From a virus (lineage: Duplodnaviria; Heunggongvirae; Uroviricota; Caudoviricetes), in IMG/VR virus record IMGVR_UViG_3300035188_001315: a stretch of DNA of 26,450 bases; one strand, 5' to 3'. The number at the start of each line of letters is the position of its first letter. The first letter of the stretch is position 1. Below the pieces are notes generated by a model. That model was not told the origin of the DNA. It saw nothing but the letters and a program-made list of their open reading frames with translations, and ran no database searches. A program made the translations under genes and the position numbers. Positions 6,033 through 24,607 of the stretch are shown in pieces.

Positions 6033-6084
6033 GTTGGATCTCCAAATAATTAACAGTTGATGATTAATTTCTTACTATGGGTTT

Positions 6085-6113
6085 ATTATAATAGATTATA
6101 GGTCAATTGTCAA
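6085..6113 (-). promoter_or_regulatory. sigma70 promoter
   Basis: TTGACA-17-TATAAT; leader CCATAGTAAGAAA shared with the tRNA-operon promoters. Confidence 0.85.
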
Positions 6114-6149: not shown

Positions 6150-6410
6150 ATTCTGTGAGTATCCCACAACACAGTTTGCCCTGCTATTTGCTATCGTACT
6201 TTCAGATAGTCCCAAGTCTCCAATTCACAGGTGTCGGGCCATTACCGGTGTTAGCTAACCTAACCTTTTTGATAGTCATTTAACACTATCAAAAAAGTAA
6301 TCTACGGTTGACAATCTAAATATTTACCAAGGGGCATAATCGATATAGCCTCTAGCATCCTCGGAAGGATCAACTCTAACTGTGTTCAAGATTACTTTTG
6401 TGATAGTGTC
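6150..6410 (-). ncRNA. putative structured ncRNA, unknown family
   Basis: No ORF, GC-enriched; 20-bp IR 6284-6303/6389-6408; 11-bp hairpin 6266-6276/6285-6295; 9-bp long-range helix 6168-6176/6378-6386. Confidence 0.55.
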
Positions 6411-6467
6411 ATGTCCCCCTGTTATTTGTACTAGTTGTCAATATGGTTAAACTGAAAAACTACCATG

Positions 6468-6746
6468 TTAAAACTCATAATATTCGTCTATGATTTCACC
6501 TGAAACAGTTTCTGCAATACCCCGATAAAAACTCATAGCTGTTTCACCTAATTTAACAGTATGACCAGCTTGTAATTCAAACCGATAAATTTCCTGTGGA
6601 TCACCACCATAACTAACTTCTATTCGTAACCCGTCAACTCCAGGATCAGTGTAACCAACATATTTAAATGAATACTTGTAATAACTTTCAAAGGACACCA
6701 CAACATCAGCATACTTTTCGATAAATTCTTCTTCACTTAATTCCAT
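6468..6746 (-). CDS. acidic hypothetical protein
   Basis: 92-aa ORF, RBS GGAG; YYKYSF and GG-x4-IYRF pattern. Confidence 0.85.
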   Translation of the reverse strand: MELSEEEFIEKYADVVVSFESYYKYSFKYVGYTDPGVDGLRIEVSYGGDPQEIYRFELQAGHTVKLGETAMSFYRGIAETVSGEIIDEYYEF

Positions 6747-6862
6747 ATCATCTCCATGAGTTTGTGATACTATTTGATTAATATGCTTGTCTATTCCAAG
6801 CAGTCACTAATCGGGTAAGATTAGAATTCTCTAGGTCTACTAAAAACAGAATACCTGTTAAT

Positions 6863-7058
6863 TTGATAGTTACTGGTACTGATCTCCAGTTTACGTTCTT
6901 GCGTCTTTATACTCGACGAATAGTGCGTGGTTTCCAACCGTTGTGGCTCACGGCACGTCCACGTTAAACCTTTTCCAATACGTTATCCGATAGCATAACT
7001 CCACTGGCTACCGTGTCGTTTAAAGATATGTGTATCAGCCTACACAATCAACTATCAA
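6863..7058 (-). ncRNA. putative ncRNA module 3 of repeated family
   Basis: Terminal stem TTGATAGTT/AACTATCAA; 5' hairpin TGTGT-AGGCTGAT-ACACA; 3' GTAAACTGGAGATCAGT. Confidence 0.65.
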
Positions 7059-7238
7059 TAGATACACTTATTTGAATTCCTTATACTGTAGTACAATTTC
7101 CTCGACCTAAGTACATCTATTCATAGTGTTTGTCTTTCCAAGCCACGCATTATTTTTTGTGCATTAAGGCTGTCCGCATAACTACATTTGCCACTTTTGG
7201 ATGGTAGTGCTTCCATTTTACAGTAACCTCAACCCTAA

Positions 7239-7481
7239 TCAGTTGGGTTGTAATTTTGTGTGTTTTTGATATAATGTGACGACTTCATTATGTGCTTCTT
7301 GAAACGCATCACCATGTGTATCAACCATTGTCATTTTTTCTGGTGCATGAACTGCATTATACATAGCTTGAGTTATTCCTCGAATTCTACCCAGAATTTC
7401 ATTTTTAAATTCAAAGTTTAAATCGCTACTGTTAAACATATTAAAAATGTCATCAGATATATATCTTGTTTCTATTTTCAT
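7239..7481 (-). CDS. hypothetical protein
   Basis: 80-aa ORF between ncRNA modules. Confidence 0.7.
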   Translation of the reverse strand: MKIETRYISDDIFNMFNSSDLNFEFKNEILGRIRGITQAMYNAVHAPEKMTMVDTHGDAFQEAHNEVVTLYQKHTKLQPN

Positions 7482-7509
7482 ATTATAATCTCATTGGTGT
7501 TTAAAATTG

Positions 7510-7622
7510 TTGATAGTTGCTGACACTGATCTCCAGTTTACTGCGTCTTGACACTTAACTGTTGGTCCACCCTCCCAGCACATCCCACACTGTACGTATC
7601 AACCCACGCATCTAACTATCAA
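7510..7622 (-). ncRNA. putative ncRNA module 2 of repeated family
   Basis: Terminal stem TTGATAGTT/AACTATCAA; hairpin TGCGT-GGGTTGAT-ACGTA; 3' GTAAACTGGAGATCAGT. Confidence 0.65.
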
Positions 7623-7692
7623 TGATAATACCAGGCTTCGGAACTCAAACCCGCATGATTTAAAAGATGTGCTTCACCTAGTATTATCATTG

Positions 7693-7820
7693 ATAGTGCT
7701 TATCTTTACAAGATGTCAGACACTGTCTAACACTGATCGCCGCTATTACCTACGTTGTGAGCCTTTGTGCAATTCATCTCACTGTTTCCACGATGCGTAT
7801 CATCTTACGCATCTAACTAT
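7693..7820 (-). ncRNA. putative ncRNA module 1 of repeated family
   Basis: ATAGT/ACTAT ends; hairpin GATGCGT-AAGATGAT-ACGCATC; 3' GGCGATCAGT. Confidence 0.6.
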
Positions 7821-7831
7821 TAAGTCATAAC

Positions 7832-7887
7832 AACCGACTAGGTTCGTTTACAGTTTCACGACAAACCGACCTAGTTCGTTTACAGTT
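7832..7887. repeat. 24-nt direct repeat, two copies 32 nt apart
   Basis: Minus strand AACTGTAAACGAAC-(TAG/CTA)-GTCGGTT at 7864-7887 and 7832-7855. Confidence 0.9.
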
Positions 7888-7982
7888 GTTATGCTTCATA
7901 GTGCTTGTCTTTCCAAGCTGCCATTCAAAATGATATTTTGAAATATAGGAAGAATACTTAACTTCTTCTCTATGGTATTACT

Positions 7983-8011
7983 ATTATACAACTAAAAATT
8001 AACATTTACAA
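7983..8011 (-). promoter_or_regulatory. sigma70 promoter heading the ncRNA array
   Basis: TTGTAA-17-TATAAT. Confidence 0.7.
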
Positions 8012-8456: not shown

Positions 8457-8534
8457 TGGAGGAACTGGTCGGATTCGAACCGACGGCTTTAAGATTTTGC
8501 AGATCCTTCTATTGGGCCTCTCTAGCACAGTTCC
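8457..8534 (-). tRNA. tRNA-Cys(GCA)
   Basis: Cloverleaf, loop CTGCAAA, U73, encoded CCA. Confidence 0.92.
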
Positions 8535-8550
8535 AAACAATTTTTAATGT

Positions 8551-8625
8551 TGGTATCCCTGGAAGGAATCGAACCTCCATCATAACGTTCGTAGCGTTGT
8601 ATTCTATCCGTTAAACTACAGGGAC
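8551..8625 (-). tRNA. tRNA-Arg(ACG)
   Basis: Cloverleaf, loop CTACGAA, CCA. Confidence 0.9.
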
Positions 8626-8627
8626 TT

Positions 8628-8864
8628 CTATTTTAAATCAAACCTATAATTTTGTCTGCTGTATGAAGCATGGTAATTGACACCATTGATCCAGTAAGGA
8701 TCAGTTACTAAACCATCATTGTGCACTCGGTTCGATAATGTTTGTATATCGTAAGTTTTGTTATCGACAATAGTTTGATTTGCCCATGAAGTATCATATT
8801 CTAAATCTACTACATATTTTTGATAAATTGACATTGATGCCTGAATTGCGGAAATATTATGCAT
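8628..8864 (-). CDS. hypothetical protein
   Basis: 78-aa ORF, RBS AGAGGTG; ends just before tRNA-Arg. Confidence 0.7.
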   Translation of the reverse strand: MHNISAIQASMSIYQKYVVDLEYDTSWANQTIVDNKTYDIQTLSNRVHNDGLVTDPYWINGVNYHASYSRQNYRFDLK

Positions 8865-8889
8865 AAAATCACCTCTTTACTTTTTTATT

Positions 8890-9255
8890 CTAATCCCTAG
8901 TGTTGTTAATCTCATTGTTTACCACCTGATAAACATTAACAGTTTTACCAATTTTAATTGCGCACTTGGTTGCATCTAAGGTTTCTCGAGATTTTTTATC
9001 CCAAAATGCAACAACAATATCGGCATTATCTATAATAGTTCTGTTTCTGATAGGTCCTGCAGCTTTACCAAACTTTTTCCAATCCGGTTTAAATATAGTA
9101 ACCGGAATAGCATTTAATTTTGTGAATTTCTCAGCAATACTATCAACACCTCGGGCACCACCTGAAATAACTTCTTTAATCTGATATTTCTTTAGGACAT
9201 CAAAAATCAAATCCTGATCAGTTATTTCTCTTGAACCAATCACTGCAACTTTCAT
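8890..9255 (-). CDS. YspA-related SLOG family protein (DUF2493-like)
   Basis: VAVIGSR, VISGGARGVD and GKAAGPIRN...VVAFWD motifs; RBS GGAGG. Confidence 0.85.
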   Translation of the reverse strand: MKVAVIGSREITDQDLIFDVLKKYQIKEVISGGARGVDSIAEKFTKLNAIPVTIFKPDWKKFGKAAGPIRNRTIIDNADIVVAFWDKKSRETLDATKCAIKIGKTVNVYQVVNNEINNTRD

Positions 9256-9388
9256 ATCTTTCCTCCATATAATGTGGTTTTAATTTTATTTATTATTCAC
9301 TGAAGGTAAGTATATAATTAGAGTGTTGTTCACAACGTAAAAAACCTTGCCAGTGAACAAAAAGTCTCACATGCAAGGCCGTGTTATT

Positions 9389-9475
9389 TGGTGCCTTGGG
9401 CCGGAGTCGAACCGGCACGTTCTTTCGAACGAGGGATTTTAAGTCCCTTGCGTCTACCAATTTCGCCACCAAGGC
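9389..9475 (-). tRNA. tRNA-Leu(TAA)
   Basis: Cloverleaf with long variable arm, loop CTTAAAA, CCA. Confidence 0.95.
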
Positions 9476-9487
9476 AAATTATTTAAT

Positions 9488-9664
9488 TTACCATCTATTA
9501 TTAGTATTTGGCGGTCCAGATTCATTTATCAAAACTACAAATGATACCAACAACACAAAACCAAATACTAAAAAAGCGGGGAGAAATACTTCCCACCATG
9601 AAAAATTTATTATATCAAATATTTTTAATATAACCAACACACATTGAAATGATGATATAATCAT
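9488..9664 (-). CDS. 58-aa two-TM membrane protein (not in ORF track)
   Basis: MIISSFQCVLVILKIFDIINFSWWEVFLPAFLVFGF...; LKx4IxFSWWxVFxP motif; RBS AAGGG. Confidence 0.75.
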   Translation of the reverse strand: MIISSFQCVLVILKIFDIINFSWWEVFLPAFLVFGFVLLVSFVVLINESGPPNTNNRW

Positions 9665-9709
9665 ATTTTTTCCCTTTCAAACATGAAATTCAACTTCGGT
9701 TTATTTATG

Positions 9710-9785
9710 TGGCAGGCCAGGTAGGACTCGAACCTACAACCATCGGTTTTGGAGACCGACATTCTACCAATTGAACTACTGACCT
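9710..9785 (-). tRNA. tRNA-Trp(CCA)
   Basis: Cloverleaf, loop CTCCAAA, CCA. Confidence 0.93.
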
Positions 9786-9807
9786 ATTATACTGTAATAC
9801 ACTAATT

Positions 9808-9884
9808 TGGTGCCCCAAGTAGGACTTGAACCTACAACCTACCGATGGTGAGTCGTGTGCTCTAACCAATTGAGCTACCAAGGT
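9808..9884 (-). pseudogene. degenerate tRNA, anticodon CAC
   Basis: Intact D and T arms and CCA; acceptor has A-C plus four G-U pairs; anticodon stem has two mismatches; loop CTCACCA. Confidence 0.7.
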
Positions 9885-9899
9885 GTTACTACTACTTAA

Positions 9900-9976
9900 T
9901 GGCGAAGAGGACGGGGCTCGAACCCGCGACCATTTGCGTGACAGGCAAATATTCTAACCAACTGAACTACCTCTCC
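9900..9976 (-). tRNA. tRNA-Asp(GTC)
   Basis: Cloverleaf, loop CTGTCAC, G73, CCA. Confidence 0.95.
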
Positions 9977-9983
9977 AATTATT

Positions 9984-10059
9984 TGGTGACTCCTATGTGA
10001 TTCGAACACATGCAACACAGATTAAAAATCTGTTGCTCTACCAGCTGAGCTAAGGAATC
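9984..10059 (-). tRNA. tRNA-Lys(TTT) copy B
   Basis: Cloverleaf, loop TTTTTAA, CCA. Confidence 0.92.
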
Positions 10060-10868
10060 GTTTTTCTTAAATCTTCTAATTTTAAAACATCAAGATGATG
10101 AATAATATCTTTATCAATAATCAAAAGCACATGTGGAAATTGATTCCATTTTGCTTTATCTCTTTCTGTCTTGTAACCTTTAACTTCCAGATAAAGATTA
10201 TGTTCTTCTAAAAAGAAATCAGGGAAATAGTTTTTATTCTTACCTTCCCACACATAAGGAAATGGCCCATCTTCATGAATCCATTTTAATCCTTGAGAAT
10301 CCAACCATTGTGCTGTCTTTAATTCCCAACTACCTTTAAGCTTAACACCATTATATTCACCGTGTTTTACTCTACCACAAACATTATTCTTTGTGTAGGA
10401 TTCAGGATTTTTCTCAACAGCTTTCAGCATAGATTCAGAAAGTTTCTTTTTACTTTCTTTAGACCAAACTTGTTTTTTGCTGTTTTCAGAAATCTTCTTG
10501 CGAGTTTCTTCAGAAATCTCTGGATCTGGTAGACCTAATTCTCTAGCTTTAAGATATTGATTTGATGCTCTACCACTTTCTTTCAACTTACGCATTGCAT
10601 CATAGTAAGCATCTGTTTTTGGTTTTAATTGTATTGTTTGTCTATTTGGATTATGCTTGCATAATCTCTCATGTTGGATAAATGAATTTTTGTTCTTCCA
10701 TTCCTTACCACAAAAAGTACATTTCAAATCTTCAGGAACAACCCAGTTCCGCTGAAAAACTTTACCATTTTGAATTGCTAAACAAATCTTTGAGTTTTTG
10801 TGTCTATCAATGTTGTTTGAAGTAATATCAGAACCACACAATTCACATTTAACCGTTCTTCTTTTCAT
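10050..10868 (-). CDS. free-standing homing endonuclease (Zn fingers + NUMOD3-like + PD-(D/E)xK)
   Basis: CELCG and CTFCG..HERLC Zn fingers; SEETRKKISE repeats; YFPDFFL...YLEVKGY nuclease motif. Confidence 0.85.
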   Translation of the reverse strand: MKRRTVKCELCGSDITSNNIDRHKNSKICLAIQNGKVFQRNWVVPEDLKCTFCGKEWKNKNSFIQHERLCKHNPNRQTIQLKPKTDAYYDAMRKLKESGRASNQYLKARELGLPDPEISEETRKKISENSKKQVWSKESKKKLSESMLKAVEKNPESYTKNNVCGRVKHGEYNGVKLKGSWELKTAQWLDSQGLKWIHEDGPFPYVWEGKNKNYFPDFFLEEHNLYLEVKGYKTERDKAKWNQFPHVLLIIDKDIIHHLDVLKLEDLRKTIP

Positions 10869-10921
10869 TTTAAATACCCACTCTTTTAGAGTAATTATAC
10901 AATAAATTGATGGAATTCAAA

Positions 10922-10933
10922 TGTTTAAAGAGC
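10922..10933 (-). promoter_or_regulatory. boxA-like antitermination element
   Basis: GCTCTTTAAACA just 3' of a tRNA. Confidence 0.55.
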
Positions 10934-10943
10934 TTTTAGTAAC

Positions 10944-11020
10944 TGGTCCCCCGTGTCCGATTCGAACGGACGATCAACAAATTATGAGTTTGCTGGCATA
11001 GACCGCTTGCCCAACGGGGG
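10944..11020 (-). tRNA. tRNA(CAT), Ile2 or elongator Met
   Basis: Loop CTCATAA, C4-G69, A73, CCA; no initiator G-C triplet. Confidence 0.88.
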
Positions 11021-11071
11021 TTTTAACCGTTTCTTGATAATATTTTAACTATCAAGCCTATTAACTATTTG

Positions 11072-11144
11072 TATCAATGGTAGGATTTGCACCTACGACA
11101 TAACGAATATGAATCGTTTGCTCTACCAACTGAGCTACATTGAT
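11072..11144 (-). tRNA. tRNA-Met(CAT), atypical
   Basis: Perfect stems, loop TTCATAT, T loop TGCAAAT, no encoded CCA. Confidence 0.75.
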
Positions 11145-11150
11145 ATTATT

Positions 11151-11234
11151 TGGTGCTCTTGGGGAGATTTGAACTCCCAAGGATTTCTCCAGTGGTTTCT
11201 AAGACCACCGTGTATGCCGTTCCACCACAAGAGC
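11151..11234 (-). tRNA. tRNA-Leu(TAG)
   Basis: Cloverleaf, long variable arm, loop CTTAGAA, CCA. Confidence 0.93.
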
Positions 11235-11253
11235 ATATACTTCTTTACATATT

Positions 11254-11330
11254 TGGCGTCGCTACGGGGAATCGAACCCAACGATTACAAGGATGAAAAC
11301 CTTGTGTCCTAACCACTAGACGATAGCGAC
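11254..11330 (-). tRNA. tRNA-Glu(TTC)
   Basis: Loop TTTTCAT, CCA; irregular T stem. Confidence 0.85.
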
Positions 11331-11345
11331 AAATTCTTATTTAAT

Positions 11346-11374
11346 TGGAGCGTCTAACTACATCATTCTAACGC
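11346..11374 (-). pseudogene. tRNA-Gly-type acceptor minihelix remnant
   Basis: GCGTTAG-AATGATGTAG-TTAGACGC-T-CCA. Confidence 0.45.
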
Positions 11375-11435
11375 TACTTTATTATTTTTATTTTCTTAAA
11401 ATTATACAATTTTTTTGTAAAATAACTTAAAAAAA

Positions 11436-11443
11436 TATAAATA
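11436..11443 (+). promoter_or_regulatory. T4-type late promoter motif
   Basis: TATAAATA upstream of the only complete plus-strand gene. Confidence 0.55.
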
Positions 11444-11559
11444 ATAAAGTGAAAGGTAATTAAAATAACTACCAATTATTTTAAAACAGTTAGAGAATTA
11501 ACCGATGTCCCTTTCAACAAATCTAATTATACAATAAAAAAAATCATAAGGAGAATATT

Positions 11560-12402
11560 ATGAAAACAATCTCAAGAATTTGCTCATGTACTATTTGTAA
11601 AAAACAATTTTCAATTAAAGGTTTTCACTCTCATTACATTTCAGCTCATACCATCAAAGGTAACTTAATGAGAAAGAAATGTGGTGCTTTAGGTTTAGAA
11701 AAAGCAATAAAAACTAGTAATTTAAAAAAAGAGCAAAGAATACAACTTTATCTTAAAAATCCTAAATTATGTAAATGTTGTAACAACCCATTACCTTACG
11801 AAAAAACCAAAAATAAGTTTTGTTCATCTACCTGTTCCGCATCTTTCACAAATAAGGAAAGATTTGAAAATGGTTACAGAGTTTCTGCCGCTCATAAAGA
11901 AAAAATTCGTAAAACTTGGGATACAAAACAGTCCAACAAACCAGAATTTACAAAAATTTCTACTTGCATAATTTGTAATAAATTCCATCCAAAAAGTGGA
12001 AAAACATGTTCTAAAAATTGTCAAGATGTTTTATTCAAACAATCATTTACTAAAACTATGGAATCTGGTTACAACCCACAACAAAATAGAAATAGAAGCA
12101 TTCCATCTCATCTTGAAAAATCATTTAAAAATTGGTGTAAAAACAATTTCCCAAACGTACTCTTTTCTCAAAACAAAGCATTCAACTGTAATGGAAAAAT
12201 GTACTATGGTGATTTTTATTTTGATTCTTTAAAAATACTAATTGAATTAGATGGAACTCAACACAAAGAAACAGTTGAATACGACAAACTACGTGATGAC
12301 AACATTTTAAAATACTACAATGTCTACACAATTAGGATTTCTCATAAGGAATTTATCAAAAAATCAAAAGTTGAATTTATCAACAATATTCTTAGTCTTT
12401 AA
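11560..12402 (+). CDS. free-standing homing endonuclease (Zn fingers + DUF559/Vsr-like nuclease), antisense to the tRNA operon
   Basis: CTICK..HYISAH, CKCC..CSSTC and CIIC..CSKNC; YYGDFYF...LIELDGTQH...YDKLRD; RBS AAGGAG. Confidence 0.87.
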   Translation: MKTISRICSCTICKKQFSIKGFHSHYISAHTIKGNLMRKKCGALGLEKAIKTSNLKKEQRIQLYLKNPKLCKCCNNPLPYEKTKNKFCSSTCSASFTNKERFENGYRVSAAHKEKIRKTWDTKQSNKPEFTKISTCIICNKFHPKSGKTCSKNCQDVLFKQSFTKTMESGYNPQQNRNRSIPSHLEKSFKNWCKNNFPNVLFSQNKAFNCNGKMYYGDFYFDSLKILIELDGTQHKETVEYDKLRDDNILKYYNVYTIRISHKEFIKKSKVEFINNILSL

Positions 12403-12416
12403 TCATAGTAGAAGTG

Positions 12417-12488
12417 AGAATCACACGGGATTTGAACCCGTAACAATTGTTTGGAAGACAATTATGTTACCATTAACACCAGTGATTC
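12417..12488 (-). tRNA. tRNA with Gly(TCC) anticodon, 17-bp extended acceptor stem, no CCA
   Basis: Loop CTTCCAA, normal D and T arms; perfect IR 12408-12424/12482-12498. Confidence 0.75.
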
Positions 12489-12511
12489 TCACTTCTACCA
12501 CATTTTTTATT

Positions 12512-12587
12512 TGGCTGGCTAGGTAGGGCTCGAACCTACGACAGAGTGATTAACAGTCACTTGATCTACCAACTGATCTACTAGCCA
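12512..12587 (-). tRNA. tRNA-Asn(GTT)
   Basis: Cloverleaf, loop CTGTTAA, G73, CCA. Confidence 0.95.
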
Positions 12588-12588
12588 T

Positions 12589-12699
12589 TTATTTAATACG
12601 ACTTTGTTTATTAATATGTGTTTGCTCAATTTCACGTAGCTGAGCTTGTTTTGCATTAGCAGAATGTCTGCCAGATATGTAATAGTCTGTAGTTTTCAT
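12589..12699 (-). pseudogene. 36-aa ORF, possible homing-endonuclease N-terminal remnant
   Basis: MKTTDYYISGRHSANAKQAQLREIEQTHINKQSRIK; no RBS. Confidence 0.35.
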
Positions 12700-12708
12700 A
12701 TCAATGTT

Positions 12709-12785
12709 TGGTCTCCCATGACAAATTCGAATTGCCAACCTATCCACCCCAAACGGATCGCTCTACCAGGCTGAGCTAATGGGAG
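12709..12785 (-). tRNA. tRNA-Pro(TGG)
   Basis: Cloverleaf, loop TTTGGGG, CCA. Confidence 0.9.
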
Positions 12786-12811
12786 TAGTTAATTTGTTAA
12801 CTAATGTGTGT

Positions 12812-12839
12812 ATTATACATTAAATTTTGTATAAGTCAA
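12812..12839 (-). promoter_or_regulatory. internal sigma70 promoter
   Basis: TTGACT-16-TATAAT. Confidence 0.7.
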
Positions 12840-12863
12840 ACACTAATTAAATCATTTTTTATA

Positions 12864-12951
12864 TGGCGAAGAATATAAGATTCGAACTTATGATACATTT
12901 CCATATGCTCCCTTAGCAGGGGAGTGCTTTCAACCCCTCAGCCAATTCTTC
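12864..12951 (-). tRNA. tRNA-Ser(GCT)
   Basis: Long variable arm, loop CTGCTAA, G73, CCA. Confidence 0.93.
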
Positions 12952-12960
12952 TATTTAATA

Positions 12961-13035
12961 TGGAGCCTCTTCCCAGAATCGAACTGAGATCTAAAGATTA
13001 CAAGTCAATTGTAATAACCATTATACTAAAGAGGC
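12961..13035 (-). tRNA. tRNA-Thr(TGT)
   Basis: Loop CTTGTAA, CCA; two U-U mismatches in the anticodon stem. Confidence 0.85.
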
Positions 13036-13063
13036 AATAACTATTATTTAAACACTTGATATT

Positions 13064-13138
13064 TGGTGACTCCTGATGGATTCGAACCATCTTCATCTCA
13101 TTAAAAGTGAGAGGTTTTTCCAATTAAGCTAAGGAATC
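13064..13138 (-). tRNA. tRNA-Lys(TTT) copy A
   Basis: Cloverleaf, loop CTTTTAA, CCA. Confidence 0.92.
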
Positions 13139-13155
13139 ATATTTTCATAATTATT

Positions 13156-13241
13156 TGGTGGTTAGGGTTGGATTCGAACCAACGAAGCACAGAGGCGGCG
13201 GATTTACAGTCCGCTGGAATTAACCACTCTCCCACCTAACC
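13156..13241 (-). tRNA. tRNA-Tyr(GTA)
   Basis: Long variable arm, loop CTGTAAA, CCA. Confidence 0.95.
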
Positions 13242-13249
13242 AGGTTATT

Positions 13250-13394
13250 TGGTTTGTAATTCTCTACAGGATTTGAACCTGTGTTGTCTAAGAATGTCTT
13301 ACTATACCCATATTGAAAATGAAAATTTTCAGTAGGAATTGAACCTACAGTAACTATTATTCCTTTGTTCTACCAATTGAACTAAGAGAATTAC
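13250..13394 (-). ncRNA. 145-nt tRNA-like RNA with two T arms and no anticodon loop
   Basis: Acceptor GTAATTCTCT/AGAGAATTAC, D arm GTTC-AATTGGTA-GAAC, T arms GTAGG-TTCAATT-CCTAC and ACAGG-TTCAAAT-CCTGT, ends AAACCA. Confidence 0.7.
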
Positions 13395-13411
13395 AATGTT
13401 TTCAATCTAAA

Positions 13412-13423
13412 TTTTTAAAGAAC
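13412..13423 (-). promoter_or_regulatory. boxA-like element
   Basis: GTTCTTTAAAAA downstream of the proximal tRNA promoter. Confidence 0.55.
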
Positions 13424-13444
13424 TTCCTTTCTTACTGTGGATAT

Positions 13445-13473
13445 ATTATACCAAACTATCTACATATTGTCCA
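13445..13473 (-). promoter_or_regulatory. tRNA-operon promoter P2
   Basis: TGGACA-17-TATAAT, extended TG; part of the 58-bp duplication. Confidence 0.85.
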
Positions 13474-13508
13474 GAGTTTTTAAAAATTGTTTAAATATTT
13501 TTTTTAAG

Positions 13509-13520
13509 TTGTTAAAGAGC
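13509..13520 (-). promoter_or_regulatory. boxA element
   Basis: GCTCTTTAACAA, matches the rrn boxA consensus. Confidence 0.7.
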
Positions 13521-13549
13521 TTCGTTTCTTAATTTCTTACTATGGATAT

Positions 13550-13578
13550 ATTATACCAAACTATCTTCATATTGTCCA
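13550..13578 (-). promoter_or_regulatory. tRNA-operon promoter P1
   Basis: TGGACA-17-TATAAT, extended TG; 13533-13590 duplicates 13428-13485 with 2 mismatches. Confidence 0.85.
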
Positions 13579-13603
13579 GAGTTTTTAAAACTTTTTTCAA
13601 TTA

Positions 13604-23869: not shown

Positions 23870-24607
23870 TTATGCGTATTCAAGCATGGCATTCAGTCTT
23901 TTAACTGCATTACCCTTCATATAAAGAGATTTTAATTTATGTTTCGTTGTACCCAACTCTTTCATTGCATCTTTAAGAGGGGTACCATTACCAACTAAAT
24001 CATATACTTGTTTGATAATTGGATTCATCTTTTCCAAATCGGAATCTATTTCCAATTGACGCAACTCATCAGTAGCACGTTGATCGGGCATTGCTTCCAA
24101 AATATTAAATTCATCATCACCAATAGTATCAAATTGACTTTGGTTTTTTACGGTAACACCAAACACCTGTGAGGAGGTAAAATAAACATAGGAATTAAAT
24201 AACTCTCTTGTAAACGGTTTTACTCCATCGAGACCATGAATCACATTAAATTCGGGACTCAATGTCACTTTTTTAAGCGTTAATGTTTTCATCGATTCAC
24301 CACGGTTATGTAAATTCATCTTGGTTTTCCGATTTGTTCTGAAAACAGGATTATAGTTTTCTAACGCCTTAAACATCGTCCAGTTAATCATATTAGTAGC
24401 GTGGGTATTAAATTTAGTCTGACTTGGATCCCATTCTCTCCAGGCTTTCATGATGGCAATATCCGCCTCCACCATCATATCCTCATAATCAAATTCGGGA
24501 GTTGTAAATTGTTTGAAACCATTGATAATTTTGAATTTACTACCAGCAACTTTATCATATGCTTCAGTGAAGGTCATGTTATTATGAATTTCTTGTGCCA
24601 TTTTCAT
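23870..24607 (-). CDS. phage sigma70-family RNA polymerase sigma factor
   Basis: Region 2-like YEDMMVEADIAIMKAWREWDPSQTKFNTHATNMI; C-terminal HTH-like LKDAMKELGTTKHKLKSL. Confidence 0.75.
   Translation of the reverse strand: MKMAQEIHNNMTFTEAYDKVAGSKFKIINGFKQFTTPEFDYEDMMVEADIAIMKAWREWDPSQTKFNTHATNMINWTMFKALENYNPVFRTNRKTKMNLHNRGESMKTLTLKKVTLSPEFNVIHGLDGVKPFTRELFNSYVYFTSSQVFGVTVKNQSQFDTIGDDEFNILEAMPDQRATDELRQLEIDSDLEKMNPIIKQVYDLVGNGTPLKDAMKELGTTKHKLKSLYMKGNAVKRLNAMLEYA

Follow-up and report, generated by a model that had tools for sequence, protein, structure and literature searches.

On the minus strand of the window analysed here, a stretch of 26,450 nucleotides from a virus of the Caudoviricetes (IMG/VR record IMGVR_UViG_3300035188_001315), an array of tRNA genes is headed by two copies of one promoter, each followed by a sequence resembling boxA of bacterial rRNA (rrn) operons. 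This arrangement raises the question whether the phage borrows the rRNA-transcription machinery of its host for its own untranslated RNAs, and how much of an rrn control region it shares. As far as can be judged from the sequence, such borrowing probably takes place.

The phage, its host and the duplicated promoter

The window derives from a lake phage whose large genome is rich in AT (32% GC), with rIIA and numerous small early genes encoded on the minus strand. The sequence of the window was also found on a metagenomic contig of 227,833 bp. Walking along this contig, a pmoC gene was located about 3.6 kb past the end of the window, whose best bacterial matches (92-93% identity) were Methylococcales genomes or proteobacterial bins. 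Since the contig carries a pmoC of the Methylococcales type, the host is probably a gammaproteobacterial methanotroph, an assignment made from pmoC alone and following the reasoning of Chen et al. for pmoC-phages (PMC7674155). Rho and NusB are encoded in 5 of the 5 Methylococcales-type genomes that were reached through pmoC. An assembly artefact as the source of the promoter and boxA region was ruled out, the region being identical in 9 other assemblies. The search for cultured close relatives of the phage returned only matches at the tRNA level or protein matches below 40%, and no diverged orthologous loci were obtained via IMG/VR, relatives of rIIA, or clusters and homologues of the flanking genes; in the rIIA relatives examined, no tRNA array adjoined rIIA. 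For boxA at the orthologous position only identical copies of the locus were found, and analogous sites occur in other phages.

The initial annotation had described a 58-bp promoter duplication with an offset of 105 bp. This description is correct, since two sigma70 cores are located at 13590-13533 and 13485-13428 of the minus strand and differ by 2 mismatches. Promoter unit 1 (13533..13590) comprises an A-tract, the -35 hexamer TGGACA (13578-13573), a 17-bp spacer, the TGn-extended -10 hexamer TATAAT (13555-13550) and the leader motif CATAGTAAGAAA; based on the usual sigma70 spacing, transcription from this promoter (P1) would start near 13543. Promoter unit 2 (13428..13485) shows the same -35 (13473-13468), spacer length and extended -10 (13450-13445), and the start of P2 would lie near 13438. 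Both promoters have an AT-rich discriminator (ATATCC) and an A-tract-CTC flank that is common to the other early promoters of the phage; by these features P1 and P2 classify as ordinary phage early promoters.

The -35 of both copies reads TGGACA, and that of the other early promoters TTGACA; it may be speculated that the duplication makes up for the weaker -35. A leader motif (C/T)A(C/T)AGTAAGAAA was observed after the -10 of P1 (13533-13544), of P2 (13428-13439) and of a promoter without boxA at 6113 (6066-6077), and it is found upstream of boxA in 33 metagenomic loci as well.

A second tRNA/tmRNA cluster is located on the same contig, about 9-11 kb beyond the end of the window. It is headed by a 56-bp promoter duplication with the copies 73 bp apart (L383:7875-8003), which belongs to a different class (TTGATA ... 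TTGTATAAT), and no boxA was found behind this duplicated promoter. Tandem promoter duplication is thus a habit of the tRNA clusters of this phage that is separable from boxA, and it probably serves dosage. Between the two clusters, three copies of tRNA-Asn and two of tRNA-Tyr share 96-99% identity (window 12498-12596 and 13154-13242; L383 8051-8150, 9728-9822 and 10300-10388), which suggests that tRNA genes were recently copied or converted between the clusters, whose promoters belong to different classes. Rfam matches to group I introns were obtained at L383:8909-9103, inside the tRNA gene region of the second cluster, and at L383:15555-15775, where the called pmoC reading frame ends. The -10 motif TTGTATAAT recurs on the minus strand of the window at 11533, 11408, 10901 and 7990 and at about 10 positions of L383; a clear TTGACA is missing from most of these sites. 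The motif possibly marks a second class of promoters, which might for instance serve the sigma-like protein encoded at 23870-24607.

The boxA sites and the transcript behind them

Scored against the consensus GYTCTTTAANA (PMC5725501), perfect boxA matches follow both promoters on the minus strand, as had been proposed, namely boxA1, GCTCTTTAACA, at 13510..13520 and boxA2, GTTCTTTAAAA, at 13413..13423. In terms of the distance to the promoters, GCTCTTTAACAA at 13520-13509 lies 29 nt past the -10 of P1 and GTTCTTTAAAAA at 13423-13412 lies 21 nt past the -10 of P2. Together with its flanks (AGCTCTTTAACAA), boxA1 is identical to the boxA of Methylococcales rrn leaders and spacers, which reads (A/C)GCTCTTTAA(C/A)AA in the named genomes of this order. 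The two sites are the only matches to the consensus in the window, for which shuffled sequences give an expectation of 0.34, and also the only perfect matches within the 45.6 kb of contiguous phage sequence that were scanned out of the 228-kb genome. For a stretch of 46 nt downstream of a promoter, the chance of a match at this base composition amounts to about 2e-4, with boxA1 and boxA2 counted as one event. About 20 strong promoters are found on the minus strand of the window, and only P1 and P2 are followed by boxA; the other approximately 18 show at least 2 mismatches to it, and most of them run into protein genes.

A comparison of boxA1 with boxA2 showed differences at the degenerate positions 2 and 10 only, while an 8-nt indel and substitutions distinguish their flanks. 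By plain arithmetic ignoring transition bias, 3 of the 495 possible double substitutions would hit degenerate positions alone. Both sites are located in untranslated RNA, as no ORF of at least 50 aa was found between 13543 and the first tRNAs. Altogether, it is very probable that the motifs close to the two promoters represent true boxA sites; they match the likely host and are specific in position to the tRNA/ncRNA array. Near boxA1 and boxA2 no stable boxB hairpin was found (fold z-scores of -0.1 to 1.3), and a search for boxC (TGTGTGG) after the two sites gave no match.

A further boxA had been claimed inside the array. The sequence in question, GCTCTTTAAACA, is present on the minus strand at 10922..10933, 10 nt past tRNA-Met, but it deviates from the consensus at position 11. 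Matches with one mismatch occur 17 times in the 45.6 kb, and the candidate was rejected as being at chance level; it is probably not a spacer boxA.

Behind boxA2, an AU-rich linker of 16 nt (13397..13412) leads to the 5' strand of the 12-bp closing helix of the first RNA, a tRNA-like molecule of about 143 nt (13254..13396, minus strand; fold z -4.1) that contains a weak Rfam tRNA match at 13324-13391. The tRNA array on the same strand comprises 18 genes called by ARAGORN (8457..13241), 16 of them upstream of the hairpin at 9345. An endonuclease-like gene on the opposite strand (11560..12402, plus strand; weak match to DUF559) introduces 843 nt of untranslated antisense RNA into the array transcript. 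The first long translated stretch is a sense endonuclease gene inside the array (10050..10868, minus strand), which is reached 2.7 kb past P1. The first 2.7 kb are almost free of sense-strand translation, and it is here that protection of the transcript would matter most.

According to the initial annotation, the array would form a single stable-RNA operon of 5-7 kb. The tRNA array does span 5.1 kb and the ncRNA modules reach 7.4 kb, but several features speak against one uninterrupted unit. There are internal promoters, such as a sigma70-like promoter with an 11/12 match before tRNA-Pro (12812..12839, minus strand) that has no boxA, the -10 sites at 11533, 11408, 10901 and 7990 add to these, and sense ORFs account for about 2.6 kb within the 7.4 kb. 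In addition, two terminator-like hairpins followed by U6 were found on the minus strand near 9575 (9570..9597; -9.4 kcal/mol, z -2.3) and 9345 (9339..9378; -15.3 kcal/mol, z -3.6). The latter, about 4.2 kb downstream of P1, is a candidate terminator of the P1/P2 unit.

Untranslated RNA is in general exposed to termination by Rho, and this threat is assumed for the array transcript. In the 250-nt windows of the sense strand, the ratio of C to G was at most 1 everywhere except at 13295-13045; therefore, rut sites with the C-rich composition searched for are not evident. Unlike classical rut sites, the transcript contains more G than C almost throughout. A leader-trailer helix spanning the array was no better than in shuffled sequences, and an Rfam scan of the window returned tRNAs only, with no rRNA genes as cargo. 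Repeated structured non-coding modules without Rfam match were observed at 6150-7990 of the window, and segments related to them adjoin tRNAs in the pmoC-phage loci L468 and L502.

Promoter-boxA units in other phages and in other boxA systems

In IMG/VR, a consensus promoter combined with a sense boxA was found in 105 distinct cases among the matches listed, and 67 of these have a tRNA on the same strand no more than 1 kb downstream, compared to 0 of 63 in the control with antisense boxA. The promoter-boxA design recurs in many phages with strict sense-strand polarity. Nonetheless, boxA is dispensable for most phage tRNA arrays: in unselected viral tRNA arrays (partial loci of mixed hosts), a sense boxA was found in 5 of 92 and an antisense boxA in 1. 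The tRNA regions of T5, Aeromonas phage 65 and PA5oct contain no boxA, and the tRNA cluster in the complete genome of a 372-kb pmoC phage is likewise without a sense copy. Promoter-boxA-tRNA units are present in two other pmoC phages, and tandem promoter-boxA pairs, 102-365 bp apart, occur in further phage tRNA regions. No published description of promoter-boxA units at phage tRNA arrays was found in a search of largely open-access literature. In another pmoC phage, 24 nt around a boxA (L499:18950) are identical to the context of boxA in the Methylococcales 16S-23S spacer, and tRNA-Gln follows 15 nt on; a direct capture from the rrn spacer of a host is a possible origin of this site.

The distance between boxA and the tRNA was 12-19 nt in 37 of 46 phage loci, with a mode of 16, the sample comprising loci of partly related phages in which a tRNA starts within 60 nt of boxA. 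Gaps between neighbouring tRNAs peak at 6 nt, and 48 of 682 fall within 12-19 nt. The spacing holds for seven isoacceptor types (Gln, Glu, Ile, two Leu, Lys and Thr) with unrelated linkers. Since the phages are partly related, a minority of loci shows 4-7 nt, and loci that start with an element other than a tRNA show no peak of long-range helices at 16 nt, this spacing rule is regarded as a lead.

Units of promoter and boxA also occur in front of other cargo. In the early leader of T7, promoters A1-A3 are followed by one boxA, GCTCTTTAACA, at 813, and Proteus phage Stubb has four promoters, each with a boxA behind it and one pair at a distance of 87 bp (both phages verified in the sequence). 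Both lytic phages thus resemble the present locus in having tandem promoters for the host polymerase and a perfect rrn-type boxA, but in these phages the unit leads into early protein genes. A boxA has been described in the leaders of CRISPR arrays (Stringer et al. 2020, as cited in PMC7862264), and in Legionella the CRISPR boxA raised the precursor RNA about 10-fold (PMC7862264). The 11-mer of boxA2 is identical to that of the Legionella CRISPR boxA. In both cases a bare boxA precedes a long non-coding polycistronic RNA outside the rrn operons, whereas the CRISPR arrays are host defence loci and the array described here belongs to a lytic phage. In suhB and further genes with a boxA in the 5' UTR, the site represses translation and favours termination by Rho (PMC5725501). 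While these sites share the consensus GYTCTTTAANA and the factors, no start codon follows boxA1 or boxA2.

Proposed function and alternative explanations

For the rrn operons of E. coli it is established that binding of NusB-NusE to boxA converts the polymerase to an rRNA-type elongation complex. We infer a similar course of events for the phage array. Early in infection, the sigma70 RNA polymerase of the host would start at the two tandem phage early promoters, whose duplication would raise the output. Each nascent RNA would expose a host-type boxA about 15-25 nt from its 5' end, to which NusB-NusE of the host would bind and, with NusA, NusG, SuhB and S4, form the elongation complex. This complex would then transcribe the first 2.7-4.2 kb, comprising the tRNA-like RNA, up to 16 tRNAs and the 843 nt antisense to the endonuclease gene. 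Taking the evidence together, it is likely that boxA1 and boxA2 are functional host-type sites which load the rRNA elongation complex onto the early tRNA transcript.

Two benefits, which do not exclude each other, are likely to arise from such loading. One would be resistance to Rho and faster elongation. The other would concern folding, in that the first RNA, beginning 16 nt past boxA2, would have its 5' strand retained close to the exit channel until the 3' partner appears. [quoted passage not shown] With 16 nt between boxA and the tRNA, the phages come near the 17-18 nt between boxA and boxC in the host, which hints at a role in folding. A simpler reading of this spacing would be that processing enzymes need room beyond the footprint of NusB-NusE. 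That a group of large freshwater phages uses the fixed spacing of about 16 nt as a co-transcriptional folding clamp on tRNAs and tRNA-like RNAs is therefore put forward tentatively, as a possibility with the larger part of the probability against it. If it holds, phage tRNA arrays would be natural non-rRNA clients of the proposed chaperone function of the complex.

The known clients of the boxA-dependent Nus complex are rRNA, lambdoid phages, CRISPR arrays and a few mRNA leaders. Should the proposed function apply, the tRNA/ncRNA operons of phages would be added as a class of clients, and NusB or SuhB of the host would be a dependency of some lytic phages. The combination of promoter and boxA would furthermore provide a cheap marker for unannotated stable RNAs of phages and a rough clue to the host. 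Whether the rrn complex has a role in folding or only blocks Rho and accelerates elongation has been left open (PMC10250234), and the 16-nt spacing offers a small substrate for this question. New here are the match to the host through pmoC, the 16-nt spacing and two controls, an internal one given by the duplicated promoter without boxA and one for polarity.

Nus factors can be titrated by boxA RNA in excess, and the abundant early leader RNA, with true NusB-NusE sites, could act mainly as a decoy that takes up these factors and lowers the rRNA synthesis of the host, with the array merely supplying a strong promoter. The two strong promoters and the two boxA copies in each P1 transcript would fit this explanation. 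The same is true for the redundancy of boxA1 in elongation, because transcripts from P1 also pass boxA2, and for the promoter-boxA units ahead of protein genes in T7 and Stubb, the latter with four. However, any strong promoter would serve for a decoy, whereas boxA is confined here to the promoters of the array, and the fixed 16-nt distance between boxA and the first tRNA in other phages is not expected for it. A decoy is considered unlikely.

The initial annotation had gone further than the loading of the elongation complex and proposed a full mimicry of an rrn operon, with P1/P2 regulation, leader and spacer boxA and one transcript of 5-7 kb that Rho would otherwise stop. In the rrn leaders of Methylococcales, two or three promoters follow one another at distances of 85-140 bp; their spacers measure 16 bp, and their discriminators are GC-rich (GGGCGG or TGTCCA). 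After the last promoter, an upstream hairpin, one boxA (29-33 nt past the last -10) and, 17-18 nt on, boxC follow. In E. coli, likewise, one set of boxB, boxA and boxC is located just past P2 (PMC10250234). The phage leader shares with them the exact and promoter-proximal boxA (21-29 nt past the -10), the untranslated stable RNA downstream and the tandem promoters about 100 bp apart (105 bp compared to 85-140 bp). A helix strand also follows boxA after 16-18 nt, the 12-bp helix of the first RNA starting 16 nt past boxA2, and the extent of the array and its modules would suit a long operon.

In contrast to the host, the phage has a boxA after each promoter and not after the last one only, a 17-bp spacer, an AT-rich discriminator and the flanks of its early promoters. 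It lacks the upstream hairpin, boxB, boxC, a convincing spacer boxA and a helix spanning the array, and its cargo is tRNA and ncRNA, not rRNA. The internal promoters and the two hairpins do not fit either, and the duplicated promoter of the second cluster manages without boxA. The claimed mimicry of rrn P1/P2 is not supported by these features, and we consider a full mimicry to be quite unlikely. For the rrn complex, boxA is both necessary and sufficient (PMC10250234). In function the phage leader would resemble that of an rrn operon, but it represents a boxA module of minimal extent added to a promoter of the phage and does not copy the rrn control region.

Another explanation would be a functionless by-product of the AT-rich genome, in which one chance match was copied together with the promoter. 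At 32% GC, and with two boxA copies that are not independent, this deserves attention, all the more as the cluster without boxA is duplicated as well. It is made improbable by the low chance expectation per promoter, by the consensus being kept in both copies while their flanks differ, and by the strict polarity in other phages, for which the counts of 67 of 105 among the matches listed and 0 of 63 were given above.

Finally, reading of the site by an N-like or NusG-like factor of the phage, as at lambda nut, rather than by the host rrn complex alone, is highly improbable, for although lambdoid phages use boxA with protein N (PMC10250234) and boxA has the leader motif (C/T)A(C/T)AGTAAGAAA upstream of it both in this phage and in the metagenomic loci, no boxB hairpin folds near either site and the same motif follows the boxA-less promoter at 6113. 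The lambda nut sites resemble the phage leader insofar as a phage RNA recruits NusB-NusE of the host through boxA, which would also be the case here. They differ in needing N and a boxB hairpin and in having a degenerate boxA, compared to the perfect rrn-type boxA without boxB in the present phage.

Perfect boxA sites behind host-type promoters with protein genes downstream were observed in the terminal repeat of Stubb (L172:4811-5776) and in Proteus phage Privateer (L129). These cultured phages represent a tractable model for the function of boxA in phages.
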